Positions 13,888 through 59,259 of a stretch of DNA of 64,000 bases are shown piece after piece; within the stretch, counting starts at the first letter, position 1; each line of letters opens with the position of its first letter. Below the pieces are notes generated by a model, which was given only the letters and a program-made list of their open reading frames with translations, was not told the origin of the DNA and did not search any database. The stretch comes from Candidatus Omnitrophota bacterium (GTDB taxonomy: Bacteria > Omnitrophota > Gorgyraeia > Gygaellales > Profunditerraquicolaceae). A program made the position numbers and the translations under genes. The stretch is from NCBI GenBank assembly GCA_028717245.1, contig JAQUOD010000009.1, positions 228 through 64,227 on the forward strand, read 5' to 3'.

Positions 13888-13917
13888 ATGCCCCGCCCCT
13901 TGCTTTCGGCGGGGCAT
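13888..13917 (+). terminator. GC-rich hairpin ATGCCCCGCC...GGCGGGGCAT after acpP
   Basis: 10-bp stem; weak U-tract. Confidence 0.4.
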
Positions 13918-13920
13918 TTA

Positions 13921-14012
13921 TACGTTCGCGGCCAAAAAACCGCGCCATTCATGGCGCGGATGAACAATTGAGCCGCTTCAGTATTCCGCCCAATGAACCT
14001 CGGGCTTAAGAC
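13921..14012 (+). repeat. repeated element family C copy 1 (CGCGGCCAAAAAACCGCGCCATTCATGGCGCGG...)
   Basis: similar to 50610-50708 and the reverse-strand copy at 55280-55385. Confidence 0.7.
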
Positions 14013-16685: not shown

Positions 16686-17240
16686 ATGATTATAAAAGGT
16701 AAAGTTCATAAATTCGGAAATGATGTAAATACCGACGACATCATCGCTGCCAAATACCTGGTTTCTACCGATGAAAAAGAGCTGGGCAGGCATTGTATGG
16801 AAAATATCGCGCCTGAATTTTGCAGTAAAGTAAATAAAGGCGATATCATCGTAGCCGGGAAAAACTTTGGTTGCGGTTCGTCGCGGGAACACGCCCCCCG
16901 GGCATTAAAAGGCTGCGGGATTGCCGCGGTGATTGCCCGTAGTTTTGCCGGAATATTTTTCAGGAATTCCATAAATGTAGGTTTGCCGTTTTTGCAATTA
17001 GATGAGACAGAAAAAATAAATGACGGCGATTCGCTTGAAATAGATTTGGCAGGTGGTATAATAAAAAATCTGAGCCAAAATCAAACTTATAAAACCACGC
17101 CCTTCCCCGGGTTTTTACAGGCGATTATTAAGCGGGGCGGTTTAATGAATTATATAAAAAACCACAGCCGTAGGGACTGTCCCCGTAGGTATCGAACCCG
17201 ATTAGAAATCAAGGGGACTGTCCCTACTAAACGAGATTAG
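16686..17240 (+). CDS. leuD: 3-isopropylmalate dehydratase small subunit; C-terminal ~25 codons read through repeated element D
   Basis: aconitase swivel domain GCGSSREHA motif; stop lies inside element D. Confidence 0.8.
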
Positions 17241-17265
17241 TCAGGATTGTAAGATGAGCCAAAAA
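17162..17265 (+). repeat. repeated element family D copy 1 (15-bp-stem hairpin GTAGGGACTGTCCCC...GGGGACTGTCCCTAC plus SD+ATGAGCCAAA)
   Basis: ~97-nt near-identical to 18319-18420. Confidence 0.85.
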
Positions 17266-18318
17266 ACGTACAGAATAGCAGTAATCCCCGGAGATGGGAC
17301 CGGCCCGGAGGTAGTAAACGAAGGCCTTAAGGTCTTAGGGGCAGTTAGTGGTAAGTGTAATTTTAAGTATGAGACCAAGGTCTTTGATTTTAGCGGCGAG
17401 CGTTACCTCAAAACCGGAAAGACCCCGGAAGATAAAGATATTGAGGAGCTGAAAAAATATTCTGCGATTTATCTGGGCGCAGTAGGGCACCCTGATGTTA
17501 AGCCCGGAATTCTGGAGACAGGGGTGCTGTTAAAATTGAGGTTTTCTCTGGACCAGTATATCAACTTACGGCCGGTAAAACTTTATAATGCTACATTCTG
17601 CCCCCTGAAGGACAAAAAGCCTGAAGATATTGATTTTGTCGTCGTGCGTGAAAATTCCGAGGGGCTTTATAAAGGCATGGGAGAATTCAAAGATAAAGGC
17701 ACTAAAGATGAGGTAGCGATTCAGATTTCTTACAATACACGTAAAGGGGTAGAACGCTGCCTGCGTTATGCCTTTGAATATTGCCGCAAACGCAATAGAA
17801 AAAAGAAGCTTACTCTTTGCGGGAAAACCAATGTCCTGACCTTTGCCTGGGATCTGTGGCAAAGAATGTTTAATGAAGTTGCTACAGAATACCCTGACAT
17901 TACCACGGATTATGCCCATGTGGATGCTACGACCATGTGGTTTGTGAAGAACCCGGAGTGGTTTGACGTGATTGTTACGGATAATATGTTCGGGGATATC
18001 ATTACAGATTTAGGCGCCATGATTCAAGGCGGTATGGGTATTGCTGCCGGAGGTAATATCAACCCGCAGGGCGTATCCATGTTTGAGCCTATCGGCGGAA
18101 GCGCGCCTAAATATACGGGTAAGAATGTAATTAATCCCCTGGCTGCGATTTGCGCGCTGGGGATGTTATTGGAGAACTTAGGCGAAGCCAAGGCCGGTAA
18201 GGCAGTTGAGGATGCCGTGATAAAGACAGCGAATAAAAAACTAAAATCCCTCGCTGCCGGGAAGATGGGTTATTCTACGACTGAAGTCGGAGATTTAGTT
18301 ATTAAATATCTAAAATAG
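17254..18318 (+). CDS. leuB: 3-isopropylmalate dehydrogenase
   Basis: [14 protein letters not shown]-terminus, NMFGDIITD motif. Confidence 0.9.
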
Positions 18319-18420
18319 CACAGCAGTAGGGACTGTCCCCGCAGATATCGAACCCAATTAGAAATCAAGGGGACTGTCCCTACTAAACGAGATTAGTCAG
18401 GATTGTAAGATGAGCCAAAG
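18319..18420 (+). repeat. repeated element family D copy 2
   Basis: carries the SD, ATG and first three codons (MSQ) of asd. Confidence 0.85.
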
Positions 18421-19432
18421 AAAATATAATGTCGCAGTAGTGGGTGTGGGTGCAGTAGGCATTGAGATGCTGCGTTGTTTAAGACGGCGTAATTTCGCTA
18501 TCGGAGAATTACGCGTGTTTGCGCGTTCCGGAAGGGCAATACAGGTTGACGGACAGAATTATTCCGTGCAGGCTATTTCACCGGAAGGTTTTCAGGGTAT
18601 AGATATAGCTTTATTCGCCGGCACCGAAGGCGAAAAAGGCGCAGCTGTTATTTATGCTGTTGAGGCGATCAAAAGAGGGGCGGTGGTAATTGATAATGGC
18701 GCGGATTTTCGTATGGACCCCAAAGTCCCTCTGGTAGTCCCTGAAATAAATGCCCAGGACATCAAGAAACATAAAGGGATTATTGCTAATCCGAATTGTT
18801 CGACTATCCAGATGGTGATGGCCCTCTGGCCGATTTATAAAAAAGCCGGTATAAAAAGAGTCGTGGTAACAACTTTGCAGGCGTCTTCGGGCGCGGGTAA
18901 GGGGGCGGTGGAGCAATTAAGAGAAGAAAATTCTTTGATCGCTTCGGGTGGATACCAGGATCTGCATGTCAAAGCGGGAAATAAAAGTATGCCGCAGCAA
19001 TTGGCCTATAATGTTTTTCCGCATATCGGCAGTTTCGCCGAAGAAGGCTATACCAACGAGGAATGGAAATTAGTCAAGGAGACCCATAAGATTATGCATG
19101 ACGCGAAAATAAAAATCTCTGCCACTACTGTTCGAGTTCCGGTCAGGGCCGGGCATTCAGAGGCAGTTTATATCGAAACCGCTAAACCTCTGGCGCCGGA
19201 AAAGGCAAGAGATATTCTTTCCCGCTCAGCGGGTATAATCGTGATAGATGATCCCAAAAACAACCTTTATCCCATGCCTAAAGATATAGAAGGTAAAGAT
19301 GAAGTCTTCGTCGGCCGCATCAGGCGCGACCCCTTCGTTAAGTGCGGCCTTTGGCTGTGGGTAGTCTCGGATAATCTCCTCAAAGGCGCTGCCTTAAACG
19401 CCGTCCAGATCGCCGAGTTATTAATAAAATAG
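18410..19432 (+). CDS. asd: aspartate-semialdehyde dehydrogenase
   Basis: VAVVGVGAVG N-terminus, active-site NPNCSTI. Confidence 0.9.
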   Translation: MSQRKYNVAVVGVGAVGIEMLRCLRRRNFAIGELRVFARSGRAIQVDGQNYSVQAISPEGFQGIDIALFAGTEGEKGAAVIYAVEAIKRGAVVIDNGADFRMDPKVPLVVPEINAQDIKKHKGIIANPNCSTIQMVMALWPIYKKAGIKRVVVTTLQASSGAGKGAVEQLREENSLIASGGYQDLHVKAGNKSMPQQLAYNVFPHIGSFAEEGYTNEEWKLVKETHKIMHDAKIKISATTVRVPVRAGHSEAVYIETAKPLAPEKARDILSRSAGIIVIDDPKNNLYPMPKDIEGKDEVFVGRIRRDPFVKCGLWLWVVSDNLLKGAALNAVQIAELLIK

Positions 19433-26274: not shown

Positions 26275-27189
26275 ATGAAAAAAGATTTTATTTGTATTAA
26301 AGACCTGGCCTCAGGAGATATTACGGATATCTTTACCCTTACTGATGGTTTAAAGCAGGATAAGAATAAATACAGCAGGGTATTGGCAGGCAAGGCCCTG
26401 GCCCTAATCTTTCAAAAACCTTCGAACCGCACGCGGGTTTCTTTTGAAGTAGGCATGTATCAGCTGGGAGGATATTCCATATATTTAGGGCCTGATGAAA
26501 TCAATCTGGGGGTAAGGGAATCTATTAAAGATGTAGCCAGGACTCTTTCCAGGTACGTAGACGGCATAGTATTAAGGACCTTTGAGCATAAAAATATTTT
26601 AGAGCTGGCTAAATTTTCCGCTCTGCCGGTAATAAACGGTTTGTCAGACTTGTTGCATCCTTGTCAGGCCCTGGCTGATATTTATACCGTCAGGGAAAAG
26701 TTGAAGAATATTAAAGGCGTAACCTTAGCCTATGTAGGAGACGGCAATAATGTCTGCAATTCTTTATTGTATGCCTGTGCCAGCGTAGGTATGAATATGC
26801 ATGTGGCTACACCTAAAGGATATGAACCGGATAAAGCGGTTTTAAGAGAAGCGCAGATAATCGCTAAAGAAAACGGTTCAACCATAAATCTATTTATCAA
26901 ACCCCAGGAGGCAGCCAGGGGTGCGGATGTCATTTATACTGATGTCTGGACGAGCATGGGCCAGGAAAAAGAAGCCCAAATTAGAAAGAAGGTATTTAAG
27001 GAATACCAGGTGAATAAGAGACTCATGCAGTCAGCCAAAAAGGGTGTTTTAATTATGCATTGCCTGCCGGCGCACAGGGGCGATGAGATCACGGATGAGG
27101 CCATTGACAGTGAGAATTCCGTGGTTTTTGATCAGGCAGAGAACAGGATGCATATACAGAAGGCGATCCTTATTAAGTTGCTAAAGTGA
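26275..27189 (+). CDS. argF: ornithine carbamoyltransferase
   Basis: STRTR and HCLP motifs. Confidence 0.85.
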   Translation: MKKDFICIKDLASGDITDIFTLTDGLKQDKNKYSRVLAGKALALIFQKPSNRTRVSFEVGMYQLGGYSIYLGPDEINLGVRESIKDVARTLSRYVDGIVLRTFEHKNILELAKFSALPVINGLSDLLHPCQALADIYTVREKLKNIKGVTLAYVGDGNNVCNSLLYACASVGMNMHVATPKGYEPDKAVLREAQIIAKENGSTINLFIKPQEAARGADVIYTDVWTSMGQEKEAQIRKKVFKEYQVNKRLMQSAKKGVLIMHCLPAHRGDEITDEAIDSENSVVFDQAENRMHIQKAILIKLLK

Positions 27190-27256: not shown

Positions 27257-27682
27257 ATGAAAAAAGGTTTTACTTTAATTGAGGTCATTGTTGTCGTTAT
27301 TATTATTGGCATCATCGCCTCCTTGTATCTTTCATCTTTCGGCACTACGAAGGAAGGCGTCTTAGATAAAGAGGCCATTTCAAATTTAAAATTACTCCAA
27401 GTTATGGAAAAGACATATGAGATGGATACGGATACTTATTATCCTGCCTCAGAAGGTTCAGTATCGGATATAGTCACTATCAACAATAACCTGCATCTTT
27501 CTTTGCCTGCAGGTTCCGGACGTAGTTGGGACTACGAAGTCTGGAGCACGGGTTGTGTCCAGGCCACGCGAAAGGGCGATGATGAAAGGTCTTGGTATTT
27601 TAAGATTGAAGATGACGGGTCTACGGCTAATTGCGCGACCGATGGAGAGCCGAATAAAGATGATTGTTATACCTGTCCATAA
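27257..27682 (+). CDS. type IV pilin-like protein (prepilin N-terminus MKKGF|TLIEV)
   Basis: G-1/E+5 prepilin signal and C-terminal Cys pair; embedded between argF and argG. Confidence 0.6.
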   Translation: MKKGFTLIEVIVVVIIIGIIASLYLSSFGTTKEGVLDKEAISNLKLLQVMEKTYEMDTDTYYPASEGSVSDIVTINNNLHLSLPAGSGRSWDYEVWSTGCVQATRKGDDERSWYFKIEDDGSTANCATDGEPNKDDCYTCP

Positions 27683-27699: not shown

Positions 27700-28890
27700 A
27701 TGACGGATAAGAAAAAGATAGTTCTTGCTTATTCCGGGGGGCTAGATACCTCCTGCGCAGTAAGGTGGCTTAAGGATCAAGGATACGAAGTAATCTGTTT
27801 TGCCGCGGATTTAGGCCAGGGTTTAGGAGGGGGTGAGGATTTTGCGGCAATAGAGGCACGGGCCTTAGCTGCCGGCGCTTCCAAAATATATATTAAAGAC
27901 CTTCAGGATGAATTTGTAGAGGATTTTGTTATCCCGGCTTTAAAGGCAGGCGCTATTTATGAAGGTAAATACCTGCTCGCTACAGCATTGGGCAGGCCTT
28001 TGATTGCCAAATATCTGGTAGAAATAGCGCATAAAGAAAAGGCCGAGGCCGTAGCCCATGGTTGTACCGGTAAAGGTAATGATCAAGTCAGGTTTGAGGT
28101 GACTACGGGAATATTAGACCCAAAATTAGAGATTGTCGCTCCGGTGAGGGCCTGGGATTTTAAGTCGCGGGAAGAAGAAATAGAATACGCGCATACGTAT
28201 AATATCCCTATAGATGTCAGCAAAAAGAAGCCTTACAGCATTGATAGGAATATCTGGGGTATTAGCATTGAAGCGGGCATCCTGGAAAATCTGGAGCAGG
28301 AACCGCCTGAGGACGCTTACCTGATTACCAAGAGCCCGACGGGTGCCTCTACATACCCTAAATATATAGAAATTTCTTTTGAAAAAGGCGTGCCTAAAAA
28401 AATAGACGGCAAGATTTATAAACCGAAGAATTTAATCAACCATCTGAATGAGATAGGCGGGCTTTACGGCGTCGGCAGGAGTGACCTGGTTGAAAATAGA
28501 TTAGTAGGCATTAAATCCAGGGAGATTTACGAAGCGCCTGCGGCGACCATATTGCATATTGCCCATAAAGAATTAGAGAGTATAGTTTTAGACAGGGAAC
28601 TAGCGCATTTTAAAGAGATAGTTTCGCTTAAATATGCGGAGCTGGTTTATTATGGGCTCTGGTATTCTCCTTTAAAAGAGGCGCTGGATGGCTTTGTGGA
28701 TTCTACGCAAAAGTATGCCAGCGGTTCGATAAAAATGAAATTATTCAAGGGTAACTGTGTGGCTGTGGGTAGAAAGTCACATCATTCGTTGTATAAAAAG
28801 GAATTGAGCACTTACGGCAAAGAAGACAAATTCGACCAGAAATTAGCCGAAGGGTTTATTAAGATATGGGGAATGCCTTATAGGAAATAA
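27700..28890 (+). CDS. argG: argininosuccinate synthase
   Basis: AYSGGLDTS P-loop. Confidence 0.9.
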   Translation: MTDKKKIVLAYSGGLDTSCAVRWLKDQGYEVICFAADLGQGLGGGEDFAAIEARALAAGASKIYIKDLQDEFVEDFVIPALKAGAIYEGKYLLATALGRPLIAKYLVEIAHKEKAEAVAHGCTGKGNDQVRFEVTTGILDPKLEIVAPVRAWDFKSREEEIEYAHTYNIPIDVSKKKPYSIDRNIWGISIEAGILENLEQEPPEDAYLITKSPTGASTYPKYIEISFEKGVPKKIDGKIYKPKNLINHLNEIGGLYGVGRSDLVENRLVGIKSREIYEAPAATILHIAHKELESIVLDRELAHFKEIVSLKYAELVYYGLWYSPLKEALDGFVDSTQKYASGSIKMKLFKGNCVAVGRKSHHSLYKKELSTYGKEDKFDQKLAEGFIKIWGMPYRK

Positions 28891-47843: not shown

Positions 47844-48041
47844 ATGATGACCAGGCTGATGGATATTGATGAATTAGCGGATTACCTGAAGCTAAAAAGG
47901 CAAACCCTTTATAACTGGTTGCACGAGGGGAAGTTTTCCGGGATTAAAGTGGGCGGGGTCTGGCGGTTTGACCGCCGCGAAATTGATTCCTGGTTAAAGA
48001 GCAGAAGGCGCGTATCTAAGTTATCAGGAGAGAACATATGA
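47844..48041 (+). CDS. excisionase/MerR-type helix-turn-helix DNA-binding protein
   Basis: IDELADYLKLKRQTLYNWLHEGKFSGIKVGGVWRF HTH_17-like. Confidence 0.5.
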   Translation: MMTRLMDIDELADYLKLKRQTLYNWLHEGKFSGIKVGGVWRFDRREIDSWLKSRRRVSKLSGENI

Positions 48042-49585
48042 GTACCTTAGGCGTATATTTTGGCCCTCAAGTAATTAGTCTGGTAGAAAGCGCGGGGAAA
48101 CGGCCGCTAAAGAATATCCAAATTTCTCAGTCGCTTGTTTCTGTAGCTAAAGGGTTAGAGGAGAAAGTCCCGGAAGAAGTAAAGTTAGTTGCCCTGCTTA
48201 AAGAGGGATTGGTTAAAAATGCGTTTGATTCAAGGGAAGCGGCGGTGAGCCTTTCCGGCAAAGATTTAATTGTACGCACTTTTGAAATGCCTATCCTGCC
48301 TGCCCATGAACTAAATAGTGCCATCCTTTTCGAAGTAAAAAAATACATTCCCTTTAAGACCGAAGACCTTATCTCGGATTTCCAGTGGCAATTGGATAAG
48401 ACTATCCAAAGGACGCGGGTCCTCTATGTGGGTATCAAAAAAGAAGCCCTGGATAAGTATATTTATATCCTTAAACAGGCCGGCCTGAAAATAAGTTCCA
48501 TAGATTATTCCGCTTTTAGTATATTAAGATTATTCAACTTAGCCAACATCAGGGAAAAAGGCATTATTTCGCTTATCGCCGTGGATGTAGCTAAAGATGA
48601 TGAAGCTAACTTCATAGTCATGGAGAAGGGGTTTCCTTTATTCAGCCGGGATATAACCTTTGCCGCAGGATACAAAGAGGCTGCTAAAGAAGAAAAAGAA
48701 GAGCCCGGCATAATCTTAGGCAGGTTGAAAAGAGAAATTCAGATATCCCTGGATTATTATGAACGTAAATTTCCGGGTAAAAATATCAGCAAAATATTCT
48801 TTGTTACCAGCCCGGATTATAAAAATGATTTGGAAGCCTTTATGAAAGAAGCGGGTTTTGGCATTCAATTTATTGATATAAATAAGATTACGGCCAGCCC
48901 GGATCATTTTTCCCTGGCTTTTGTCAAGGCCTACAGCGCTTCTTTATCCAAAGTGGCTACGGGAGTCAAGATTAATCTCTTATCGGCAAAAGAAAAGACA
49001 GAACAAAAAGCAATCCCGGAACAATTCACTTTCGCCTATCTGGAGCACCTATTCAGGATAAATACCAGGTTAATTATGGCCTCTATTTTTGTCTGTGCTG
49101 CTGTTTTCTTATTTAGCGTATCCCGCCGGATCCCCCTGCAAAAGGAATTAAAAAATATAATAAATACGCGGCCGCCTGTTTCTACCGTTTCGCCGGACTT
49201 AGGTTATGAGGAACTGGCAGCCGTAGATTTTGATTATAAACAGAGAATAACAAATATGGATAACTTCCTTAAACAACGGCCTTACCTGACGCCGCTATTG
49301 GACGTGATACCTTCTCTTGTGCCTGACGGTATATGGCTGGTTAATTTATCTTCTAAGGAGGGGACAGAAGGGATTGAACTGACCTTAGAGGGCATGGCTT
49401 ATCTGGGTGATAGCAAAAAAGAAAGGGAACTCGTGAATGCATTCGTTTCAGCTTTAAAGAAGGATCCCACCTTTGCCCAATATTTTAAGGAAGTATCCCT
49501 TGTTTCTGCGGTAAGCATGCAGAGCGGGAAAGCAAACGTCACTAATTTTACTATTTCCTGTCAGTATATAAAAAAAGCAGGCTAA
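48038..49585 (+). CDS. pilMN: type IV pilus assembly protein PilM fused to PilN
   Basis: actin-like PilM ~340 aa, TM helix LIMASIFVCAAVFLF, then periplasmic PilN-like domain. Confidence 0.7.
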   Translation: MSTLGVYFGPQVISLVESAGKRPLKNIQISQSLVSVAKGLEEKVPEEVKLVALLKEGLVKNAFDSREAAVSLSGKDLIVRTFEMPILPAHELNSAILFEVKKYIPFKTEDLISDFQWQLDKTIQRTRVLYVGIKKEALDKYIYILKQAGLKISSIDYSAFSILRLFNLANIREKGIISLIAVDVAKDDEANFIVMEKGFPLFSRDITFAAGYKEAAKEEKEEPGIILGRLKREIQISLDYYERKFPGKNISKIFFVTSPDYKNDLEAFMKEAGFGIQFIDINKITASPDHFSLAFVKAYSASLSKVATGVKINLLSAKEKTEQKAIPEQFTFAYLEHLFRINTRLIMASIFVCAAVFLFSVSRRIPLQKELKNIINTRPPVSTVSPDLGYEELAAVDFDYKQRITNMDNFLKQRPYLTPLLDVIPSLVPDGIWLVNLSSKEGTEGIELTLEGMAYLGDSKKERELVNAFVSALKKDPTFAQYFKEVSLVSAVSMQSGKANVTNFTISCQYIKKAG

Positions 49586-49589: not shown

Positions 49590-50168
49590 ATGAAAATAGA
49601 ATATCCTAAGGGAGAATTAATCAGTTTATTCAAACAATATAAGGGTAAGATCCCCGCTATTGTTATAATTATATTTACTTTGTTTGCCGCCGCGGGTATT
49701 TATAAAAGCCAGGCCAATATCCTTAGATCAATGAACCTGCGCAAGGATAGAGAACTAAACAAAAACAGGGTGTTAGGCGAGATTAGCCAATCAGAGAAAA
49801 AGATTGAGTCCTACCAGGGCATGCTTATGGAAAAAAATGCGCCTGCGATTATAGATAAGATAACTAAACTCGCCAAAGATTCTAATATAAAAATTATTTC
49901 TATTGAGCCGGGCCCGCAAGAGAAACATCCGTTATATACCAGATACCCTTTTATTTTGGCTATCAATGCGGGCAGTTATCATGCCGTAGGAAAATTTATC
50001 AGTAAAATAGAAAATTACTCTGACCTCTATTTTGTAAACGCAGCAACTATAAAACCGGCAGAGGGAAGCGGGGCATCTGGCCAGAAGTCAGATAAAGGTG
50101 GGCCGGCAACGGATAAACTAAGGGTTAATTTAACCTTAAGCATAATCGCGTTTACGGGCGAAAAATGA
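49590..50168 (+). CDS. PilO-like pilus assembly protein
   Basis: N-terminal TM plus coiled coil; operon position. Confidence 0.5.
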   Translation: MKIEYPKGELISLFKQYKGKIPAIVIIIFTLFAAAGIYKSQANILRSMNLRKDRELNKNRVLGEISQSEKKIESYQGMLMEKNAPAIIDKITKLAKDSNIKIISIEPGPQEKHPLYTRYPFILAINAGSYHAVGKFISKIENYSDLYFVNAATIKPAEGSGASGQKSDKGGPATDKLRVNLTLSIIAFTGEK

Positions 50169-50585: not shown

Positions 50586-52235
50586 ATGAAAAAAAACAGA
50601 TTATTTTTATACATTCGCGGCAACAAAACCGCGCCATTTATGGCGTGGATGGAGTTTGGCCGCTCAGTATTTCGCTCCAGGAAATCGCGGGCTTTAGTTC
50701 GCGGAGCTTCATTTTTCCTTATTTTTTATTTATTGTCTATAGAATCAAGCGCTACCCAGGAAGTTGCCGATAAAGGAGGCATAGCTTCCGCTGCCGGCGT
50801 AACCATATCCATGGATTTTCAGGACGCCAGCCTCAAGGACATATTAAAAATACTTTCTATCCAGTCAGGCCTGAATTTCATTGCTTCCGAGGCAGTGCAA
50901 GACAGAAAAATAACCTTGTTTTTAGATAAAGTGCCGCTTGAGGGGGTAATGGATAAGTTATTTACGGCAAATAATCTTTCTTACGAGCTGGACAACAAAT
51001 CAAATATATTTTTGGTAAAAGACTGGGGCAAGCCCCAGACTGAAACCATTACTAAGGTGTTTTACCTTAAATATGCTACGGTTTCCTCCTCTTCCTTAAA
51101 AGCAGAGATGTCCGATCAGATAGGCAGCAGCAGTTCATCCGGAGGCACAAGTAGTAGCAGCGGCAGTAGTTCAAGCGGAGGGAGCAGTTCCAGTAGCGAT
51201 GGCAAATGGGCAGTAGAAGAGGATGTAGGTATTACTAAGGCGGTAAAAAAGAACCTTTCAGAGAGCGGTTATGTAGTAGAAGATTACCGTACAAATAGTC
51301 TTATTGTTACTGATCTGCCTAGCCGTATACCGGTTATTGATAAAGTCATTGCCTCTTTGGATGTGCCTATACCTCAGGTGATGCTTGAGGTAGAGATGCT
51401 GGATGTGAGTAAAGCTAGTACCGAGAAGTTAGGGCTTAAATTCGGCCAGACGCCTTTGACCTTTGTATTAACCGGCGCTAAGCGAAGCACGGATTTTCCC
51501 TTCAGCTCTACTGTCCTGCCATACGCGGCAGCAAAACAAATGACACCCGGCAGTATGAGTTTTGCTACCGCATATCAAGTGACCTTAGATTTTTTAAAAA
51601 CCCAGACTGATACAAAATTTTTAGCCCGGCCGCGCTTATTGACTTTAAATAATGAAACCGCAGAGATAAAGATTACCACCCAGGAGGCAGTAGGAGAAAT
51701 ACTAACTGTTTCCGGAGAGAGCGGTAATCTGAGCACTACTACTGAAGCAGAAAGATATGAGACCGGTGTTTCTCTGCGGGTTACCCCGCAGATTAATCTA
51801 GAAACCGGAGAGATAACTATGTTTATCGTACCGGCAGTAGCCGAGGCAACTGCCAGCGGTATTACCAGCAGTTCGGGCGTCAAATTTTATAATCCTGAAA
51901 CCAGGACTACCAAATCCATTGTCTGCGTCAAAGATAATGAAACAGTAGTGTTAGGAGGGTTAATACGCAATAAAAGAACCCAGACCATTACCAAATTACC
52001 CTTTTTGGGCGATCTGCCTTTCATCGGGAAATTATTTACCCATAAAGACGTAGACCCGGGCCAGGAACGCGAATTGCTGGTGTTTATTACTCCGCATATA
52101 GTAAAAGATACAAGCATAGAATTTGCCAGCGTAAAAAAAATAGAGCCTCTTAATCTTAAGCGGGAACAAAGCATTGGTTCCGCACTCAACCGTCAGATGA
52201 CCATAGATTCAAGCCTGAATAGCCTGGAAAAATAA
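50586..52235 (+). CDS. pilQ: type IV pilus secretin PilQ (with Ser/Gly-rich linker and element C inserted in the N-terminal coding region)
   Basis: C-terminal secretin motif VVLGGLIRNKRTQTITKLPFLGDLPFIGKLF; GGAGG SD at 50572; alternative in-frame ATG at 50640. Confidence 0.8.
   Translation: MKKNRLFLYIRGNKTAPFMAWMEFGRSVFRSRKSRALVRGASFFLIFYLLSIESSATQEVADKGGIASAAGVTISMDFQDASLKDILKILSIQSGLNFIASEAVQDRKITLFLDKVPLEGVMDKLFTANNLSYELDNKSNIFLVKDWGKPQTETITKVFYLKYATVSSSSLKAEMSDQIGSSSSSGGTSSSSGSSSSGGSSSSSDGKWAVEEDVGITKAVKKNLSESGYVVEDYRTNSLIVTDLPSRIPVIDKVIASLDVPIPQVMLEVEMLDVSKASTEKLGLKFGQTPLTFVLTGAKRSTDFPFSSTVLPYAAAKQMTPGSMSFATAYQVTLDFLKTQTDTKFLARPRLLTLNNETAEIKITTQEAVGEILTVSGESGNLSTTTEAERYETGVSLRVTPQINLETGEITMFIVPAVAEATASGITSSSGVKFYNPETRTTKSIVCVKDNETVVLGGLIRNKRTQTITKLPFLGDLPFIGKLFTHKDVDPGQERELLVFITPHIVKDTSIEFASVKKIEPLNLKREQSIGSALNRQMTIDSSLNSLEK
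50610..50708 (+). repeat. repeated element family C copy 2, in-frame inside the pilQ 5' coding region
   Basis: ~95% identical to the reverse complement of 55280-55385. Confidence 0.85.
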
Positions 52236-52247: not shown

Positions 52248-53969
52248 ATGCCTGCCAGAGAAAAATATCTAAGATTAGGCGAGCTCCTCCTTAAAGAGGG
52301 CATTATCACCGAGGCGCAATTAGAAAAGGCCATCACTGTGCAGAGGCAGGAGGGCGGGCGCTTAGGCGAAATTTTAGTGAAGTTAGGCATACTCAAAGAA
52401 GACCAGACCGTCGCCATCTTAAGCAAGCAGCTGAATATCCCCTATTATGGTATGGGTAGCGACTTAAAACCGACCATGGGAGAGAATTTAGAGCAGCTTA
52501 TCCCTAAAGATTTTGCGCTAAGGAATATGGTGCTTCCTTTATCGCGCACCTTAAGGTCGCTGACCATAGCCATGGCTGACCCCTTGGACCTTATCCTTAT
52601 TGATAACTTAAGAAAACTTACGGATTGCGAAATTAATCCGGTAATTGCCACCAGAACTGATATTACCAAGGGTATTGAGGGTTTTTACGGCAAGTCTAAA
52701 ATGTTTGAGGAAGCAGTAGAGGCCTCTTATGGCGGGGCCAGGGAGATTTCGGAAACCGAAGCAGAAGAAGCTACGGACCAGGAGTTGAGCCTGGATAGGC
52801 TGATTGCCCGCGCAGAAGAAGCGCCGGTAGTCAAGCTCGTAGATTTGATTATCCGCCAGGCCATTGATGAGCGCGCTTCCGATATCCACATAGAACCCTT
52901 TAAGGAAAGGATCTCTTTACGTTACCGTATCGACGGAAAATTATATGAGATCCCGCCGCCGGCCAAGCAGCTGCACTTACCGATTATCTCGCGTATCAAG
53001 ATATTGAGTAAATTAGATATTGCCGAGAAGCGCCTTCCCCAGGACGGGGCATTCTTAGTGAAGTTAGAGGACCGGCCTATAGACATCAGGGTATCTACGG
53101 TCCCTACGATATACGGGGAAAAAATAGTAATGAGATTATTAGATAGAAGCGTTGTGGTTTTAAACCTGGACCAGATGGGTTTTGAGGCCAAGCAATTAGA
53201 ACTCATCCGCCGCGCCATAAATTTGCCTTATGGCCTGGTTTTGATCACCGGCCCCACCGGCAGCGGAAAGACCACCACCTTATACGCTATCTTAAGCGAG
53301 ATAAAAAGCCCGAGCAAGAATATTGTGACCGTTGAGGACCCGGTAGAATACAAATTAGACGGGATTAACCAGGTCCAGGTAAAGCCCGAGATAGGGCTTA
53401 CCTTTGCTAATGCCCTGCGCAGTTTCTTAAGGCAGGACCCGGATATAATGTTAGTGGGCGAGACCCGCGATTTGGAAACCGCCCAGATTTGCATCCGTTC
53501 GGCCTTAACCGGGCATATGGTATTTAGTACCCTGCATACTAATGACGCGCCTTCGGCAATAACCCGGCTTATTGATATCGGCATTGAGCCTTATATGGTC
53601 GCGCCATCGCTTTTAGCAGTATTCGCCCAACGTTTAGTCAGAAAATTATGCCCGGATTGTAAGGAGGCATATGAGCCTACTTTAGAAGCAACCGGAGGCG
53701 TAAAAATCAAGGCGGATTTAATCTATAAGCCCAGGGGTTGCAGTAAATGCGGCCAAATCGGCTATAAAGGCAGGACCTGCGTTTGCGAGGTAATGGTAAT
53801 CAATGAGCAGATCAGGAATTTGATTAGCCAGGCTGCTTCCTTTCAGAAGATCAGGGATGCGGCTAAGGAAGCAGGCATGTTCACCCTTTATGACTCAGCC
53901 ATAAAAAAAATTGAAGACGGAATTACTTCTTTAGAGGAAGGCCTCGCCGTGACCCTGGGGGCAGAATAA
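52248..53969 (+). CDS. pilB: type IV pilus assembly ATPase PilB (GspE family)
   Basis: GSPII_E N-domain, Walker A GPTGSGKTTT, Asp and His boxes, CxxC...CxxC. Confidence 0.9.
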   Translation: MPAREKYLRLGELLLKEGIITEAQLEKAITVQRQEGGRLGEILVKLGILKEDQTVAILSKQLNIPYYGMGSDLKPTMGENLEQLIPKDFALRNMVLPLSRTLRSLTIAMADPLDLILIDNLRKLTDCEINPVIATRTDITKGIEGFYGKSKMFEEAVEASYGGAREISETEAEEATDQELSLDRLIARAEEAPVVKLVDLIIRQAIDERASDIHIEPFKERISLRYRIDGKLYEIPPPAKQLHLPIISRIKILSKLDIAEKRLPQDGAFLVKLEDRPIDIRVSTVPTIYGEKIVMRLLDRSVVVLNLDQMGFEAKQLELIRRAINLPYGLVLITGPTGSGKTTTLYAILSEIKSPSKNIVTVEDPVEYKLDGINQVQVKPEIGLTFANALRSFLRQDPDIMLVGETRDLETAQICIRSALTGHMVFSTLHTNDAPSAITRLIDIGIEPYMVAPSLLAVFAQRLVRKLCPDCKEAYEPTLEATGGVKIKADLIYKPRGCSKCGQIGYKGRTCVCEVMVINEQIRNLISQAASFQKIRDAAKEAGMFTLYDSAIKKIEDGITSLEEGLAVTLGAE

Positions 53970-55207
53970 TGGCAAGGTTTACTTATACGGCCAGAGACAA
54001 TAAAGGTGAACGGCTTAGCGGTTCGGAAGAAGCGGTATCTTTAGATGAACTCACCAGCCGCCTTCAGGCAAAAGGTTTAACAGTAATAAATATAAATATC
54101 CTGCCCGAAGCCAAAGAAGAAAAATCTGCTCTTAAGCCGGAAGCAAAAGAAAAAAAACGCCGGTACCGCCATAGCCGCGTTAGCAGCGATGATTTGGTTA
54201 TTTTTTCCCGGCAATTAGCCGCTCTTTTAGGTTCAGGGGTAACGATTCTAAAGAGCATAGATATCATTTCTAAACAGGTATACAGCCGTAAATTATATAA
54301 TACGCTTAAAGAAATAGAAGGCAATTTAGAAGGAGGCTTAAGTTTTCACGAAGCCATAGCCAAACAATCGGACGTATTTGCCGATTTATGGGTTAATCTG
54401 GCAGAAAGCGGTGAAGCCAGCGGAAACTTAGCCGTAGTTTTAGGCCGTTTAGCTACTTATTTGGAGGTAAGGGCTGCCTTTAAGAAGAAGATTGTCTCTG
54501 CTTTGGTTTATCCGGTTATCCTGATGTTTGCCGGAATCGGCGCGTTGCTTTTTTTGACCTTAAAAATCATCCCTACCTTTGCCGAATTGTTCAAGTCCTT
54601 TAATGTCACCCTGCCCACGCTCACCAGGATAATTATCTCCTTTAGCAACTTTCTTCAGAAATATTTTCTGGTTATTATAGGTATCATTGTTGTGTTTTCT
54701 TTTATATTCAAAAGGTATATCAAGACCAAAGAAGGGAGAAGGAACTTTGAACGGTTCCAATTGAGTTTGCCGGTGTTTGGCGAGTTTTTCCGCGCCCTTA
54801 TCGTAGAGAGGTTTTCTTCGGAGATGTCCACCCTGATTGAAAGCGGGGTGCCCCTCTTGTATTCGCTGGAGATCACCGAACACAGCGTAAGCAGTTTAAC
54901 CATGGAAGAAATCGTGCGCCAGATAAAAGAGGATGTGCGTGAAGGCAAACCCTTAAACAGCAGTTTAGATAAGAGCGGTTTTTTTGAGCCGATGGTCATC
55001 CAGATGGTCGCTATCGGGGAGGAAATCGGGGAATTGCCCCAGATGTTCAAGCGTATTAATACCTTTTATATGGAATACACCGAGACCTTTTTGACCCGCT
55101 TTACCGCGATGTTTGAGCCGCTGATGTTGATATTTATGGGCGGGGTAATCGGGCTGATGGTCGCCGGGATATTTTTGCCCATATTCCAGCTCACCCAGAT
55201 GAGATAG
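53969..55207 (+). CDS. pilC: type IV pilus platform protein PilC (GspF family)
   Basis: duplicated T2SS_F domains, three TM regions. Confidence 0.85.
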   Translation: MARFTYTARDNKGERLSGSEEAVSLDELTSRLQAKGLTVININILPEAKEEKSALKPEAKEKKRRYRHSRVSSDDLVIFSRQLAALLGSGVTILKSIDIISKQVYSRKLYNTLKEIEGNLEGGLSFHEAIAKQSDVFADLWVNLAESGEASGNLAVVLGRLATYLEVRAAFKKKIVSALVYPVILMFAGIGALLFLTLKIIPTFAELFKSFNVTLPTLTRIIISFSNFLQKYFLVIIGIIVVFSFIFKRYIKTKEGRRNFERFQLSLPVFGEFFRALIVERFSSEMSTLIESGVPLLYSLEITEHSVSSLTMEEIVRQIKEDVREGKPLNSSLDKSGFFEPMVIQMVAIGEEIGELPQMFKRINTFYMEYTETFLTRFTAMFEPLMLIFMGGVIGLMVAGIFLPIFQLTQMR

Positions 55208-55218
55208 GAAAGAAATCA

Positions 55219-55247
55219 TTGACATCGGATTAAATTATTGATAAAAT
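55219..55247 (+). promoter_or_regulatory. candidate sigma70 promoter TTGACA-17-TAAAAT upstream of the pilin array
   Basis: consensus -35 and near-consensus -10 with 17-nt spacer. Confidence 0.4.
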
Positions 55248-55279
55248 TAAAAAACATAAAGGAGGTGGGATAAAAAAAT

Positions 55280-55385
55280 GAAGCTCCACGAGCTAAAGCC
55301 CGCGGTTTCCTGGAGCGAAATACTGAGCGGCCAAACTCCATCCGCGCCATAAATGGCGCGGTTTTGTGGCCGCGAATGTATAAAG
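55280..55385 (-). repeat. repeated element family C copy 3 (inverted relative to copy 2)
   Basis: with copy 2 it brackets pilQ-pilB-pilC. Confidence 0.85.
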
Positions 55386-55457
55386 ATAAGCAGGTAGCAG
55401 GCACCTAAAACAAAGAAATTAATATTTAGTTAAGTTTATTATACAAGGAGGCTCAAG

Positions 55458-55892
55458 ATGAAAAAAGGTTTTACGCTCTTAGAACTAATCGTAGTCATGA
55501 TCATCATCGGTATCCTGGCTACCTTAGGTATCCAGCAATACGCCCGGGCAACAGAGAGGGCAAGAGGCGCTGAGGCCAGGCAGGTTTTAGGCCAGATCCG
55601 CACTACTGCCGCAGGATTTCGCTTACAGAATGGAAATAGTTGTGCAGGGTTTGGGAATGACCAGGCTGGTATTGGCACTGAGACTGACCGGATTCCCATA
55701 GATTGCACCAGAGCGACACACTATTTCAGGTATGGGGTTACAGCCGCTACCGCAGATGCTATTATTCTTACTGCTACACGTTGCACAGGAACTAACGGCA
55801 AACAACCGGGCGCTTCAACAGCTTTTCAACTCACTCTAAATACTGACTTTGTATTGGGCACTGATACCTGGGCCGGAAACGGCGGGTATTAA
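55458..55892 (+). CDS. type IVa pilin paralog 1 (MKKGF|TLLELI)
   Basis: prepilin leader, E+5, Cys pair, C-terminal TWAGNGGY; GGAGG SD. Confidence 0.85.
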   Translation: MKKGFTLLELIVVMIIIGILATLGIQQYARATERARGAEARQVLGQIRTTAAGFRLQNGNSCAGFGNDQAGIGTETDRIPIDCTRATHYFRYGVTAATADAIILTATRCTGTNGKQPGASTAFQLTLNTDFVLGTDTWAGNGGY

Positions 55893-55904
55893 TTTAGGCT
55901 CAAG

Positions 55905-56339
55905 ATGAAAAAAGGTTTTACGCTCTTAGAGTTAATCGTGGTCATGATCATTATTGGTATCCTGGCTACTTTAGGTATCCAGCAATACGCCCGGGCAACA
56001 GAGAGGGCCAGAGGCGCTGAAGCCAGGCAGATTTTAGGCCAGATCCGCAGCACTGCCGCAGGGTATTATTTACAGAATGGAACTTGCGTAGGGTTTAATG
56101 ATACATTAGCGGGTATTGGCGGGAATCCTGACCAGATCCCTACCGGATGCAGGGCAACACACTATTTTAATTATTATATTAATATCGGATATCTGACTAC
56201 GGACGTTATGCGGGCTACTGCTACCCGTTGCATAGGAGGTAGGGGTAAACCGCCGAGCGCTTCAACAGCTTTTCAACTCACTCTGACTACTAATTTTGCT
56301 AATGGCAATGACACCTGGGGCGGAAACGGCGGGTATTAA
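55905..56339 (+). CDS. type IVa pilin paralog 2
   Basis: N-terminal 55 aa and last ~25 aa shared with paralogs 1, 3 and 4. Confidence 0.85.
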   Translation: MKKGFTLLELIVVMIIIGILATLGIQQYARATERARGAEARQILGQIRSTAAGYYLQNGTCVGFNDTLAGIGGNPDQIPTGCRATHYFNYYINIGYLTTDVMRATATRCIGGRGKPPSASTAFQLTLTTNFANGNDTWGGNGGY

Positions 56340-56351
56340 TTTAGGCTCAAG

Positions 56352-56786
56352 ATGAAAAAAGGTTTTACGCTCTTAGAGTTAATCGTGGTCATGATCATTA
56401 TTGGTATCCTGGCTACTTTAGGTATCCAGCAATACGCCCGGGCAACAGAGAGGGCCAGAGGCGCTGAAGCCAGGCAGATTTTAGGCCAGATCCGCAGCAC
56501 TGCCGCAGGGTATTATTTACAGAATAGAACTTGCGTAGGGTTTAATGATGCAGCAGCTGGTCTTGGCGGGAATCCTGACCAGATCCCCAGGGCATGCAGG
56601 GCAACCCACTATTTTTATTATTTCATTAATACTGTAAATGCGGACGGTATTTTTGTTGCTGCTGTGCGTTGCTCAGGAACTGATAACGGTAAACAGCCGG
56701 GTGCTGCTTCTGTTGATCGCGTCCTTACTCTAACTACTAACTTTGCTAATGGTGTTGATACCTGGTCCGGAAACGGCGGGTATTAA
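56352..56786 (+). CDS. type IVa pilin paralog 3
   Basis: as paralog 2. Confidence 0.85.
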   Translation: MKKGFTLLELIVVMIIIGILATLGIQQYARATERARGAEARQILGQIRSTAAGYYLQNRTCVGFNDAAAGLGGNPDQIPRACRATHYFYYFINTVNADGIFVAAVRCSGTDNGKQPGAASVDRVLTLTTNFANGVDTWSGNGGY

Positions 56787-56798
56787 TTTAGGCTCAAG

Positions 56799-57233
56799 AT
56801 GAAAAAAGGTTTTACGCTCTTAGAACTAATCGTAGTCATGATCATCATCGGTATCCTGGCTACCTTAGGTATCCAGCAATACGCCCGGGCAACAGAGAGG
56901 GCCAGAGGCGCTGAAGCTAGGCAGATTTTAGGCCAGATCCGCGCTACTGCCGCAGGGTATCGCTTACAGAATGGAACTTGCACAGGGTTTAATGATGCAG
57001 CAGCTGGTATTGGCAGGAACCCTGACCAGATTCCCAGGGTATGCGCGTCAACGCACTATTTTTATTATTGGCTTCATCCTGATACTGGGGGTGATACTTT
57101 TCGGGCTATTGCTACGCGTTGCACGGCAGCAGAAAGCGGTAAGTCACCAGGAGCTTCAGCAGCCCTTTTCCTCTCACTAACTACTAATTTTGCTAATGGC
57201 ACTGATACCTGGTCCGGAAACGGCGGGTATTAA
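56799..57233 (+). CDS. type IVa pilin paralog 4
   Basis: as paralog 2. Confidence 0.85.
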   Translation: MKKGFTLLELIVVMIIIGILATLGIQQYARATERARGAEARQILGQIRATAAGYRLQNGTCTGFNDAAAGIGRNPDQIPRVCASTHYFYYWLHPDTGGDTFRAIATRCTAAESGKSPGASAALFLSLTTNFANGTDTWSGNGGY

Positions 57234-57274
57234 TCTTTAGGGAGCATTGATACATTCGTAAAAGGAGGCTCAAG

Positions 57275-57676
57275 ATGAAGAAAGGTTTTACGCTCTTAGA
57301 GTTAATCGTAGTGATCATTATCATCGGTATTTTGGCTACTTTAGGCATTACCCAGTATGCTTCCACTGTTGAAAGAAGCCGCGTTGCCGAAGCCAAGGCT
57401 AATTTGGGGTCGTTACGTACCCTACAGCTTGCTTATTTTCAGGATAAAGATGAGTATGCTTCAGTAGCTAATTTGGAAGCAAATCTGCCTACTGATACTT
57501 GCACTAGCCAGTACTATTTTAAGTATAGTTGCGACGCTGGGGGGAATGGAACTGGAGAGTGTACTGCTACCAGATGTGGATCTGCCGAGAATGGCAAATC
57601 TCCAGGCTATACAGGGAACGCATATAATATCAGACTCGAGATAAATGGCGAATGGAACAGTGATGCGGGCTGGTAG
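57275..57676 (+). CDS. type IV pilin (divergent fifth pilin)
   Basis: MKKGF|TLLELIVV leader; GGAGG SD; four Cys. Confidence 0.8.
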   Translation: MKKGFTLLELIVVIIIIGILATLGITQYASTVERSRVAEAKANLGSLRTLQLAYFQDKDEYASVANLEANLPTDTCTSQYYFKYSCDAGGNGTGECTATRCGSAENGKSPGYTGNAYNIRLEINGEWNSDAGW

Positions 57677-58124
57677 TAAAATATACCGGAAATCTCGCCA
57701 GAAATACCCCGGGGTTACCTTATTAGAGCTCCTGCTGGTAACTCTGGTGGTAGCTATTTTAGCCGCCTTAGGCGTGATGCATTATGGCGCCAGCCCCGGA
57801 GAACGCACCAGAAGTAAAGAAGTAATTGCTAACCTTAAACTCATTGCCGCTGCCGAAAAAATCTACCGTATGGAAACAGAAAGTTATTATGCTTCAACAG
57901 GCGCGACCCCCCAGGAGCACATTCAAAATATTAATAAGTATTTGAAATTGTCTTTAAGTATAAGCAGTTCGCGGAATTGGGATTATTCCGTTACTGCTGA
58001 TGCAGACGATTTTACCGCCTACGGGGACAGGGTGGAATCGGCTCCGAGCCCATACAATACCTGTCAATATTCCATTGATGATAACCTGGATGAACCGAAG
58101 CCAGTTGGCGGTAACTGCCCTTAG
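57663..58124 (+). CDS. pilin-like protein with long (17-23 aa) leader ...RQKYPG|VTLLELL
   Basis: G-1 and E+5 present; start uncertain (57645 or 57663). Confidence 0.55.
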   Translation: MRAGSKIYRKSRQKYPGVTLLELLLVTLVVAILAALGVMHYGASPGERTRSKEVIANLKLIAAAEKIYRMETESYYASTGATPQEHIQNINKYLKLSLSISSSRNWDYSVTADADDFTAYGDRVESAPSPYNTCQYSIDDNLDEPKPVGGNCP

Positions 58125-58147
58125 GGAGATTTAATCAGTAAGATACT

Positions 58148-58525
58148 TTGATTTCCGGTATGCATAATAAAAGTTTAACCCTCCTGGAGATTCTGGTAGC
58201 TGTGCTTATCCTGGCCTTAGTCATGGCCGGTATCGCCAATGTTTTTATTGCCAGCAGAAGGCGTTTAGGGCAGAGCCGCTCGAAAATCCAGGCTGCGGAA
58301 TTGGGGAGATTGTTTTTAGCCCCTCTGCAGAATCAAGTAAGACAAGACCTGTGGGGAAAGAATTGTTTGAGCGGTAAAACCGAAGAATGCCCGGGCCCAG
58401 AAAAGCTTGGCTTTACCACCTACAAACCTGCCTATGAAATTACTCCGGTTGTAATTGCGGGAAATACTCTACCTTTGCAGAGAGTAAAGGTTACTATCAC
58501 CTGGGATGAGCCCCAATCAAAATAA
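58148..58525 (+). CDS. minor pilin-like protein (NKS|LTLLEIL; no Gly at -1)
   Basis: hydrophobic N-terminal helix with E+5. Confidence 0.5.
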   Translation: MISGMHNKSLTLLEILVAVLILALVMAGIANVFIASRRRLGQSRSKIQAAELGRLFLAPLQNQVRQDLWGKNCLSGKTEECPGPEKLGFTTYKPAYEITPVVIAGNTLPLQRVKVTITWDEPQSK

Positions 58526-59114
58526 GTCACTTACCCTCCTGGAGTTATTAATCTCTATCAGTATCTTAGGCCTTCTAGTTTTGGGATTTTCCAACCTGGA
58601 TACCTTTACCCGTTACCATGTGGCTACTTCAGACAGGCAGGCGAAACTCCAGAATGACGCTAGCTATGTCTTAGAGCATATGGCAAAAGAGATCAGTAAG
58701 GCAATTGGCAATGTTCAGGACGATAAACCCCCCATCACCATCACTGCTATTCGCGGCGATCCAGCCATAAAAGTATGGATAGATTCTAATGGTTCAGGCC
58801 AGCGCGATACCGGTGACAAGCAAATTGCTTATCGGTATCACATAACACAAGCTTCAGCTGGAAGATGCCAGGTTTGGTACTGCCCTTATTGTAGGGATGA
58901 ACAACTCTGTGAATCTTGTGACCCCTGGTGGAGTGTTTCTAATAATGTCTTGAGTAAAAAAATATCTGGTTTTGATGCCGTCTATGATGCTGACGGCAAT
59001 TGTATTGATATTGAAATCACTGCCTGTTGGGATCCCCTGGCCGCTTCTTCGCCGGATAACCCTTGCGTTACCCTGCGCAACTGCATCAACCTGCCTAGTG
59101 TTTCTAGCAATTAA
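58506..59114 (+). CDS. minor pilin-like protein, Cys-rich C-terminus (NKS|LTLLELL)
   Basis: same leader type; 20-nt overlap with upstream gene. Confidence 0.5.
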   Translation: MSPNQNKSLTLLELLISISILGLLVLGFSNLDTFTRYHVATSDRQAKLQNDASYVLEHMAKEISKAIGNVQDDKPPITITAIRGDPAIKVWIDSNGSGQRDTGDKQIAYRYHITQASAGRCQVWYCPYCRDEQLCESCDPWWSVSNNVLSKKISGFDAVYDADGNCIDIEITACWDPLAASSPDNPCVTLRNCINLPSVSSN

Positions 59115-59183
59115 AAAAGCAAGATACTTTTTGTTTGCTAAATCACCCAAGTTGTGCTAAATTTAAGCTTAAATTAATCTTAT

Positions 59184-59259
59184 GGGGCGATAGTTCAGTT
59201 GGGAGAACGCTACATTCGCATTGTAGAGGTCGCGGGTTCAAATCCCGCTCGCTCCACCA
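59184..59259 (+). tRNA. tRNA-Ala (anticodon CGC), CCA encoded
   Basis: cloverleaf folded by hand: 7-bp acceptor with G3:U70, D-stem GTTC/GAAC, anticodon loop TTCGCAT, T-loop TTCAAAT. Confidence 0.85.

Follow-up and report, generated by a model that had tools for sequence, protein, structure and literature searches.

Why would a bacterium keep four complete pilin genes in a row behind a single set of pilus assembly genes, with the ends of the copies nearly identical and their middles diverged? The question is raised by a stretch of DNA of 64,000 nucleotides (nt), hereafter the window, from a Candidatus Omnitrophota bacterium (assembly GCA_028717245.1, contig JAQUOD010000009.1), in which four tandem pilin genes, here g1 to g4, occupy positions 55458-57233. 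Omnitrophota are uncultured, mostly ultra-small bacteria whose presumed way of life is attachment to other cells. Type IVa pilus clusters are near-universal in the phylum, have been tied to its host-attached lifestyle and are among its few candidate attachment devices (PMC10066038). Our analysis suggests that, in this lineage, tandem amplification has given the major type IVa pilin gene four copies, which feed one pilus machine with varied heads, a reading to which we give a probability of about 60%. The array most likely supplies several interchangeable subunits to that one machine. The genes concerned, together with a fifth pilin gene downstream, are as follows.

55458-55892, forward strand: pilin g1, 144 amino acids (aa), whose globular domain diverges most; 5' 113 nt shared exactly with g4; 213 bits against the hidden Markov model (HMM) of the pilin family.
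55905-56339, forward strand: pilin g2 (P0001; MDD5592873.1), 144 aa, 219 bits; the copy modelled with AlphaFold.
56352-56786, forward strand: pilin g3, 144 aa, 212 bits.
56799-57233, forward strand: pilin g4, 144 aa, 214 bits.
57275-57676, forward strand: fifth pilin, g5, 133 aa, 45% identity, four Cys, with a GGAGG site of its own; same family.

The four open reading frames (ORFs) are present in the ORF listing at the starts given in the original prediction, and Tandem Repeats Finder reports a single array at 55449-57234 (period 447, 4.0 copies, 81% matches, score 2053). Overall identity among the proteins is 70-77%, and they can be aligned along their whole length, so the earlier description of their middle parts as unrelated was overstated. 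The predicted identical spacer of 12 nt is found at all three junctions, each of which reads TAA-TTTAGGCTCAAG-ATG. The first ~165 nt are near-identical as claimed, with no mismatch between g2 and g3, 7 between g1 and g4 and 13-16 in the other pairs (16 for g1 against g2 or g3). The conserved 3' end holds at the nucleotide level, where the last 24 nt differ at 0-2 positions. However, the proposed motif LTLTTNFANGxDTW is present only in g2-g4, g1 having LTLNTDFVLGTDTW instead. The longest exact repeats in the array, of 205 and 113 nt, and the most variable segments are located as follows.

55874-56078, forward strand: homogenised junction block (3' end, 12-nt spacer TTTAGGCTCAAG and 5' 174 nt of the next gene), 205 nt exactly identical to 56321-56525.
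55449-55561: counterpart of this block for g1 and g4, 113 nt exactly identical to 56790-56902.
56166-56279, forward strand: most variable segment of g2, about residues 88-125 (β1, β1-β2 hairpin, β2 and β2-β3 loop), from per-column variability on the model; ratio of nonsynonymous to synonymous divergence (dN/dS) 0.5-1.4.
About 55719-55832 (g1), 56613-56726 (g3) and 57060-57173 (g4), forward strand: the matching segments of the other copies.

Antisense ORFs are present at 55439-55708, 56783-56983 and 57193-57396; they recur because the pilin 5' ends recur, and it was reasonable to regard them as artefacts. Overall, the anatomy of the array is genuine and well formed; the earlier observation is partly confirmed and its interpretation partly supported.

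All copies start with MKKG followed by FTLLELIVV, that is, a class III signal peptide with a short basic leader ending in Gly, Phe at +1, Glu at +5 and a hydrophobic N-terminus. Cleavage had been placed after MKKGF; the sequence and the canonical prepilin rule place it between MKKG and FTLLE. The Pfam N_methyl motif is present in each copy (E = 5e-7). The family is large: a search at E<=1e-3 gives over 700 homologues, almost all ~140-145 aa long, and those with a named source are mostly from Omnitrophota. With 212-219 bits, g1-g4 score above every genome-collection locus scored alongside, and they are intact, with no frameshift or stop and with every nearly invariant residue of the family kept. 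The family profile matches the N-termini of PAK PilA, Neisseria PilE and Geobacter PilA in the PDB (E ~3e-9); matches of this sequence profile search are confined to the N-terminal helix, and the structure searches named no nearest solved pilin. Aromatic residues make up ~10% of g2-g5 and 7.9% of g1, near the thresholds that PMC10066038 uses, so that a reading as conductive 'e-pilins' would depend on a heuristic of composition only, which is silent on the array.

An AlphaFold2 model of g2, built with an alignment of 89 sequences, has a mean predicted local distance difference test score of 94.5 and a predicted template modelling score of 0.81, and shows the classic pilin topology of a long N-terminal α-helix and a four-stranded antiparallel β-sheet. 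Variability within the array was expressed as the fraction of positions that vary among g1-g4 in each region of this model.

Residues 7-58: α1 helix, variable fraction 0.07.
Residues 59-87: αβ-loop, 0.55.
Residues 88-92: β1.
Loop between β1 and β2: 0.88.
Residues 101-108: β2, 0.75.
Loop between β2 and β3: 0.67.
Residues 124-130: β3.
Residues 135-140: β4.
Last 14 residues: 0.29.

The filament-core helix (residues 1-57) differs at no more than two positions among the four copies. The variable region had been described as ~40 residues between two Cys, at the position of the αβ-loop or D-region. However, each copy has three Cys, at positions 61/62, 82/83 and 107-109, and the conserved pair C82/C109 encloses 24-26 residues. 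In the family alignment (n=89) C82 and C109 are conserved in 88 sequences and C61 in 16. The stretch from C82 to C109 includes the conserved motifs THYFxY and A(T/V)RC, which leaves a truly variable core of ~12-15 residues and the loop after it. Because C82 ends the αβ-loop and C109 ends β2 in the model, the presumed C82-C109 disulfide brackets the β1-β2 hairpin and not a C-terminal D-region. A canonical disulfide-bonded D-region is absent, the C-terminal 35 residues holding no Cys at all.

The history of the array can be read from relatives and from the copies themselves. Three syntenic loci (L081, L083 and L085), whose major pilins share 61-68% identity with g1 or g2, contain pilMN-pilO-secretin-pilB-pilC, followed by one family pilin and by orthologues of the minor pilins of 159, 125 and 202 aa. 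These loci show that the ancestral state at this position was one gene and, since all three have a single pilin there, the four-copy array is a lineage-specific amplification. Unit duplication followed by diversification, as originally proposed, is also borne out by the identical junctions and by the diverged globular part (synonymous divergence, dS, 0.33-1.0). No positional orthologue of g5 exists in the three relatives. It is an older paralog of a short-αβ-loop subtype that also occurs in other Omnitrophota arrays, where it stands alongside the long subtype, e.g. in locus L007. All junctions cut through a former Shine-Dalgarno (SD) site, reading TAATTTAGGCTCAAG as against AAGGAGGCTCAAG upstream of g1 and TAATCTTTAGGGAGC downstream of g4. 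This pattern fits one founding duplication at a short AGG-containing microhomology, after which the array may have grown by unequal homologous exchange.

Divergence estimated by the Nei-Gojobori method is distributed unevenly along the genes, dS being 0-0.28 in codons 1-52 and 0.33-1.0 in the remainder of the gene for most pairs. The 5' synonymous deficit is significant for g1 and g4 (3/39 vs 25/67, Fisher p = 6e-4) and for g2 and g3 (0/38 vs 16/65, Fisher p = 4e-4), and does not reflect constraint on these sites, because g1 and g2 differ at 9 synonymous sites there. Sites that group g1 with g4 and g2 with g3 (n=16) lie mainly at the 5' side, 14 of them within the first 254 alignment columns, whereas all sites informative for the other two partitions (n=8) lie past column 288 (Fisher p = 6e-5 for the switch). 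A Sawyer-type permutation on polymorphic sites also reveals four concordant runs.

Columns 383-410, g1 and g2: run encoding ASTAFQLTL, p = 1e-4.
Columns 44-182, g2 and g3: p = 0.003.
Columns 415-435, g2 and g4: p = 0.008.
Columns 213-227, g3 and g4: p = 0.010.

The mosaic tracts, the homogenised 5' ends and the exact repeats together support gene conversion within the array, unequal crossing-over, or both, as history. The conversion between cassettes that had been proposed is therefore upheld as a past process; the antigenic or receptor variation and the differential expression suggested along with it may be among the uses of the array.

The array is located directly downstream of pilC in a PilMN-PilO-secretin-PilB-PilC cluster, i.e. 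behind type IVa machinery, with minor pilins on its other side.

48038-49585, forward strand: PilM-PilN fusion (Pfam PilM_2 and PilN), alignment subcomplex.
49590-50168, forward strand: PilO (Pfam PilO), alignment subcomplex.
50586-52235, forward strand: secretin (Pfam Secretin, 3e-38).
52248-53969, forward strand: ATPase of PilB/GspE type with an MshEN domain (Pfam T2SSE, 2e-137).
53969-55207, forward strand: PilC/GspF platform protein (Pfam T2SSF, 2e-52).
57645-59114, forward strand: three minor-pilin-like genes (159, 125 and 202 aa; Pfam N_methyl; BLASTP matches to genes of L081, L083 and L085).
59184-59259, directly after the minor pilins: tRNA-Ala(CGC) (Rfam).

The MshEN domain lies at the N-terminus of the ATPase (Pfam E = 2e-17) and is likewise found in the orthologues of L081, L083 and L085. 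We take MshEN of pilus ATPases to be a module that binds cyclic di-GMP, which would hint at second-messenger control of this pilus.

How the copies are expressed was examined from the signals around them, of which three need to be located.

55447-55451, forward strand: SD site of g1, GGAGG, 6 nt before the ATG; anti-SD duplex energy -11.4 kcal/mol, the second or third strongest in the window.
55219-55247, forward strand: candidate sigma70-like promoter from a consensus scan, TTGACA-17-TAAAAT, 11/12, with a TG extension; the sole strong match upstream of the array.
55274-55389, reverse strand: copy of a palindromic dispersed repeat (~105-116 nt) between pilC and g1, with a terminator-like hairpin at 55342-55361 followed by TTTTGTGG.

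The full GGAGG sites claimed for g1 and g5 are both present 6 nt upstream of the ATG, with duplex energies of -11.4 and -11.6 kcal/mol. The SD of g2-g4 had been called degraded, and indeed AGG alone is left (-2.8 kcal/mol). However, this does not imply silence: the value is close to the window median of -3.9 kcal/mol (n=44 genes), many housekeeping genes in the window have no SD at all, and g2-g4 are therefore not silenced by their SD. From these values, g2-g4 probably initiate less well than g1, possibly by reinitiation past the upstream stop. The consensus scan found no promoter-like and no convincing terminator-like site between the copies, and together with the 12-nt spacers this makes co-transcription of g1-g4 likely. 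The promoter at 55219-55247 is a candidate only, as sigma70-like hits in the region are no more frequent than in shuffled sequences; by eye, no convincing match to sigma54 or other promoters was found between the repeat element and g1. For the five initiation regions (z -0.9 to +1.5) and the 263-nt leader (z -1.8), predicted RNA structure did not exceed that of shuffles, and Rfam has no match in the array or leader, the tRNA-Ala at 59184 being its sole match.

The repeat between pilC and g1 is an inverted repeat of 50601-50716 (95% complementary), with a third, weaker copy at 13917-14007; terminator-like hairpins occur in it in either orientation, and Rfam does not match it. The left copy (50601-50716, forward strand) lies inside the secretin ORF, where it inserts 35 codons in frame into the signal peptide, between the n- and h-regions, MKKNRLF[LYIRGNKTAPFMAWMEFGRSVFRSRKSRALVRGAS]FFLIFYLLSIESSA. 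Without the repeat and one ATTTTT, the secretin has a normal signal peptide, as in its relatives. We take this in-frame insertion to be reminiscent of the Rickettsia palindromic elements. The two copies, 95% identical and inverted, bracket the secretin-pilB-pilC block with 4557 nt between the arms, and a homologous inversion between them would cut the secretin off from its start and SD.

Otherwise the window consists of core chromosome (greA, recG, fab genes, leuCD/leuB, asd, an arg operon and uvrA), and no transposase, recombinase or reverse transcriptase occurs among its Pfam-annotated ORFs. All ORFs of at least 150 aa with a Pfam assignment in positions 1-64000 are on the forward strand, an extreme bias; the few long reverse-strand ORFs all overlap forward ones. 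A further prepilin-like ORF of 141 aa (27257-27682; Pfam N_methyl, family HMM 42 bits) is located within the arginine-biosynthesis operon, between the genes for ornithine carbamoyltransferase (26275-27189) and argininosuccinate synthase (27700-28890). A direct repeat of 139 nt, 88% identical (17145-17283 and 18301-18439), flanks an isopropylmalate/isocitrate dehydrogenase-like gene (17254-18318), so that an identical 22-nt sequence lies upstream of both this gene and the next one (asd-like, 18410), and their first codons are similar. The called TTG start (59199) of a radical-SAM ORF overlaps the tRNA-Ala, and its real start must therefore lie further downstream.

Amplification of this pilin is not confined to the present locus. 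In a first survey, GTDB species genomes were scanned and scored with the HMM, which returned 80 loci, and 11 of these contain tandem sets of the family (L007 has six adjacent copies and two more nearby, L024 has four, and L003 and L006 three each). In a second survey, look-ups of encoding contigs and a scan of metagenomes of the Joint Genome Institute (JGI) gave 65 loci with a strong family match, with at least two copies in 18 and neighbour identities of 33-100%. Both counts together indicate that amplification of this pilin is recurrent in Omnitrophota. The junction TAATTTAGGCTCAAGATGAARAARGG of the present array has no exact match in JGI metagenome contigs, which therefore supply no second population sample of it. 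The largest accumulation, in L007 (1832-8400 of JAQTNM010000026.1, Omnitrophota metagenome-assembled genome (MAG) STA_64), comprises eight family paralogs in 6.6 kb. MAG STA_64 has further paralogs on at least five other contigs (L003, L006, L009, L013 and L019), and MAG STB_82 also has many (L012, L024 and L026-L031). Such paralog-rich MAGs mix subtypes, namely a short αβ-loop type ending in ...SDAGY and long types with an extra C-terminal Cys. Two-copy arrays at L018 (5986-6875) and L025 (6001-6831) show the reverse pattern to that of g1-g4, their N-terminal 50 residues being 54-73% and their globular parts 85-86% identical. No description of pilin arrays of this kind was found in a limited search of the Omnitrophota literature.

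Recombination between copies has homogenised a junction block of ~200 nt (3' end, spacer and 5' end) and left mosaic tracts elsewhere. For the use of the copies, the following course may be proposed. As the spacers suggest, g1-g4 would be co-transcribed; g1 would be translated most efficiently because of its strong SD, and g2-g4 would be made at lower levels through weak-SD initiation or termination-reinitiation. Because the assembly helix is the same, all four products are expected to be processed and polymerised by the same PilBC/PilMNO/secretin machine, and mixed or alternative filaments with different exposed surfaces may be the outcome, a functional consequence suggested by precedent. The likely benefit, in a lineage thought to rely on attaching to other cells, would be an adhesion specificity that is wider or that shifts, or a way to evade phages that bind the pilus. 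Owing to the long identical direct repeats, the number of copies and the make-up of the cassettes should be unstable.

The Omnitrophota major pilin gene is repeatedly amplified in tandem and, at least in this genome, its copies keep one assembly helix while the exposed heads diverge and recombine, which marks the pilus surface as a fast-evolving interface. The array offers targets for tests of host or phage specificity, namely paralog-specific peptides and the β1-β2 hairpin, and it is of interest mainly as an entry point to the cell-cell interface of a phylum that is uncultured and host-dependent.

Several points weigh against this reading. Neither PilT nor a prepilin peptidase is encoded within the window. 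Neighbouring copies in 16 other recent arrays of the family differ evenly along their length, at 0.14-0.21 per site in every region including the helix; the combination of a homogenised helix block and diverged heads therefore characterises this array and not the family, and the hairpin was rejected as a hotspot common to all arrays. The promoter assignment is weak, and the true promoter uncertain, because the sole strong sigma70-like match precedes a dispersed repeat whose terminator-like hairpin separates it from g1. Exact repeats of up to 205 nt lie in a short-read MAG, where copy order and number are provable only from reads. Finally, neutral drift after duplication could account for the heads, because dN/dS does not significantly exceed 1 in the variable part.

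This last point leads to the alternative that survives best, although we consider it unlikely, namely that the copies are redundant duplicates that arose by unequal crossover, perhaps for dosage, and that their heads drift under relaxed constraint with no adaptive diversification. The dN is 0.017 in the helix, and dN/dS is 0.2-0.4 in the C-terminal strands (g2-g4) and 0.5-1.4 in the variable segment, where the peak of 1.43 (g2-g3) rests on small counts. At the level of these comparisons, the scaffold shows purifying selection and the head is either relaxed or diversifying, two states that are indistinguishable with four sequences. Redundancy would also agree with the abundance of tandem duplicates of every age in the phylum and with the correlation between variability within the array and family-wide column entropy (Spearman rho 0.65), the varying positions being the same as in the family. 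However, all four copies have kept the conserved structural residues and equal profile scores, with no frameshifts or stops, despite head dS of up to 0.5-1.0, and dosage alone would favour identical copies.

Programmed variation of the Neisseria pilE/pilS type, with g1 as expression locus and g2-g4 mainly as donors that convert its variable segment, appears improbable. In its favour are the full GGAGG, found within the array at g1 only, the conserved 5' and 3' blocks around a variable core and the statistically supported conversion-like tracts. However, g2-g4 are complete (ATG, leader and conserved residues), probably belong to the same transcription unit and have SD sites near the window median. 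Moreover, neither 5'-truncated nor promoterless pilin fragments occur elsewhere in the window, no G-quadruplex (G3+N1-7 x4) is present on either strand in 55151-55470 upstream of g1, no recombinase lies nearby, and most tracts do not have g1 as recipient of variable-region sequence. Silent cassettes as in Neisseria were rejected on the lack of truncated copies and of a G-quadruplex.

Equally speculative is a working intragenomic cassette system in which full-length, co-transcribed paralogs would continually swap head segments via the junction blocks and change in copy number, perhaps coupled to the inverted repeats that could switch off secretin-pilB-pilC. If true, the pilus surface of a host-dependent nanobacterium would change rapidly, and behaviour resembling antigenic variation would occur outside animal pathogens, with prey or host specificity or pilus phages as the driving force.

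That the array is an assembly artefact, with strain variants of a one- or two-copy locus strung together or with copy number or order mis-resolved, is very improbable. The exact repeats of 113 and 205 nt are longer than the usual k-mers, and g1-g4 occur as whole genes in NCBI MAG records only and not in other assemblies; their proteins match exactly those of a Candidatus Omnitrophota MAG in GenBank, on a contig of 65,236 bp. An independent Logan assembly of SRR22315508, 100% identical to 57205-59229, begins exactly at the 3' repeat common to g3 and g4, a break expected of a short-k assembler at a true repeat or at a strain mixture. However, the reads must hold at least one tandem junction, and the junction flanks each of the four variable cores. 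In addition, the same order of pilC and g1-g5 with identical proteins is found in two GenBank MAG records (MDD5592871-76 and, reversed, MDD4980855-50), which are possibly not independent, and many independent assemblies, from different assemblers, contain similar arrays of 2-8 copies. A target of a diversity-generating retroelement was rejected, excluded by the substitution spectrum, which lacks an adenine bias (template A at 15-37% of differing sites in every ordered pair), and the Pfam-annotated ORFs of the window include no reverse transcriptase.

With the supply of several subunits to one machine as the preferred reading, the array can be compared with known systems. Multi-pilin loci are well known, as are the tandem duplication of pilins and gene conversion among them, and the array does not reveal a new mechanism. 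In Neisseria, tandem pilin-derived repeats in pilE/pilS have conserved segments around a Cys-bounded variable region and recombine non-reciprocally; the pilS copies are without 5' coding region and promoter, and a G-quadruplex element near pilE is required. The Omnitrophota array is similar in its conserved flanks, its variable Cys-bounded segment and the segmental transfer between copies, here a historical signal only. However, its copies are all complete and probably expressed, and variation falls in the β1-β2 hairpin and not in the C-terminal D-region.

Denise et al. found many duplicated genes, among them many pilins, to lie side by side, in agreement with tandem duplication (bioRxiv 10.1101/576694), and tandem pilA genes in Stigmatella have been termed unusual (PMC6060248); neither account describes Omnitrophota arrays or homogenised junction blocks. 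In Francisella tularensis, direct repeats, recombination and deletion at pilE1(pilA)-pilE2-pilE3 are the subject of Forslund et al. 2006, going by the title as cited in PMC4688374. By this description only, the likeness lies in adjacent pilin genes whose common sequence serves as direct repeats. The known outcome there is reportedly gene loss in attenuated strains and not documented diversification.

The six pilins PilA1-PilA6 of Haloferax volcanii combine an almost fully conserved hydrophobic H-domain, used for assembly, with divergent heads, and each can act as the major pilin with differing adhesion behaviour (PMC4371748). A conserved assembly domain with divergent heads is likewise seen in the array, whereas the Haloferax genes are archaeal, dispersed instead of tandem, and encode pilins unrelated in sequence.

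The closest functional analogue is found in Streptococcus sanguinis, where pilA1-A3 or pilE1-E2 are 2-3 adjacent full-length major pilins, 65-94% identical within a strain, with identical or near-identical α1 (residues 1-53), a copy number that varies by strain and an origin attributed to duplication; pilus assembly and motility are affected differently by each paralog (PMC11121087). That organism is Gram-positive, lacks a secretin and has pilins of another subfamily, whereas the Omnitrophota array, known from its genes alone, has four recent copies and an older fifth, with documented recombination tracts. Both have in common adjacent, recently duplicated, full-length major pilins with a near-identical α1.

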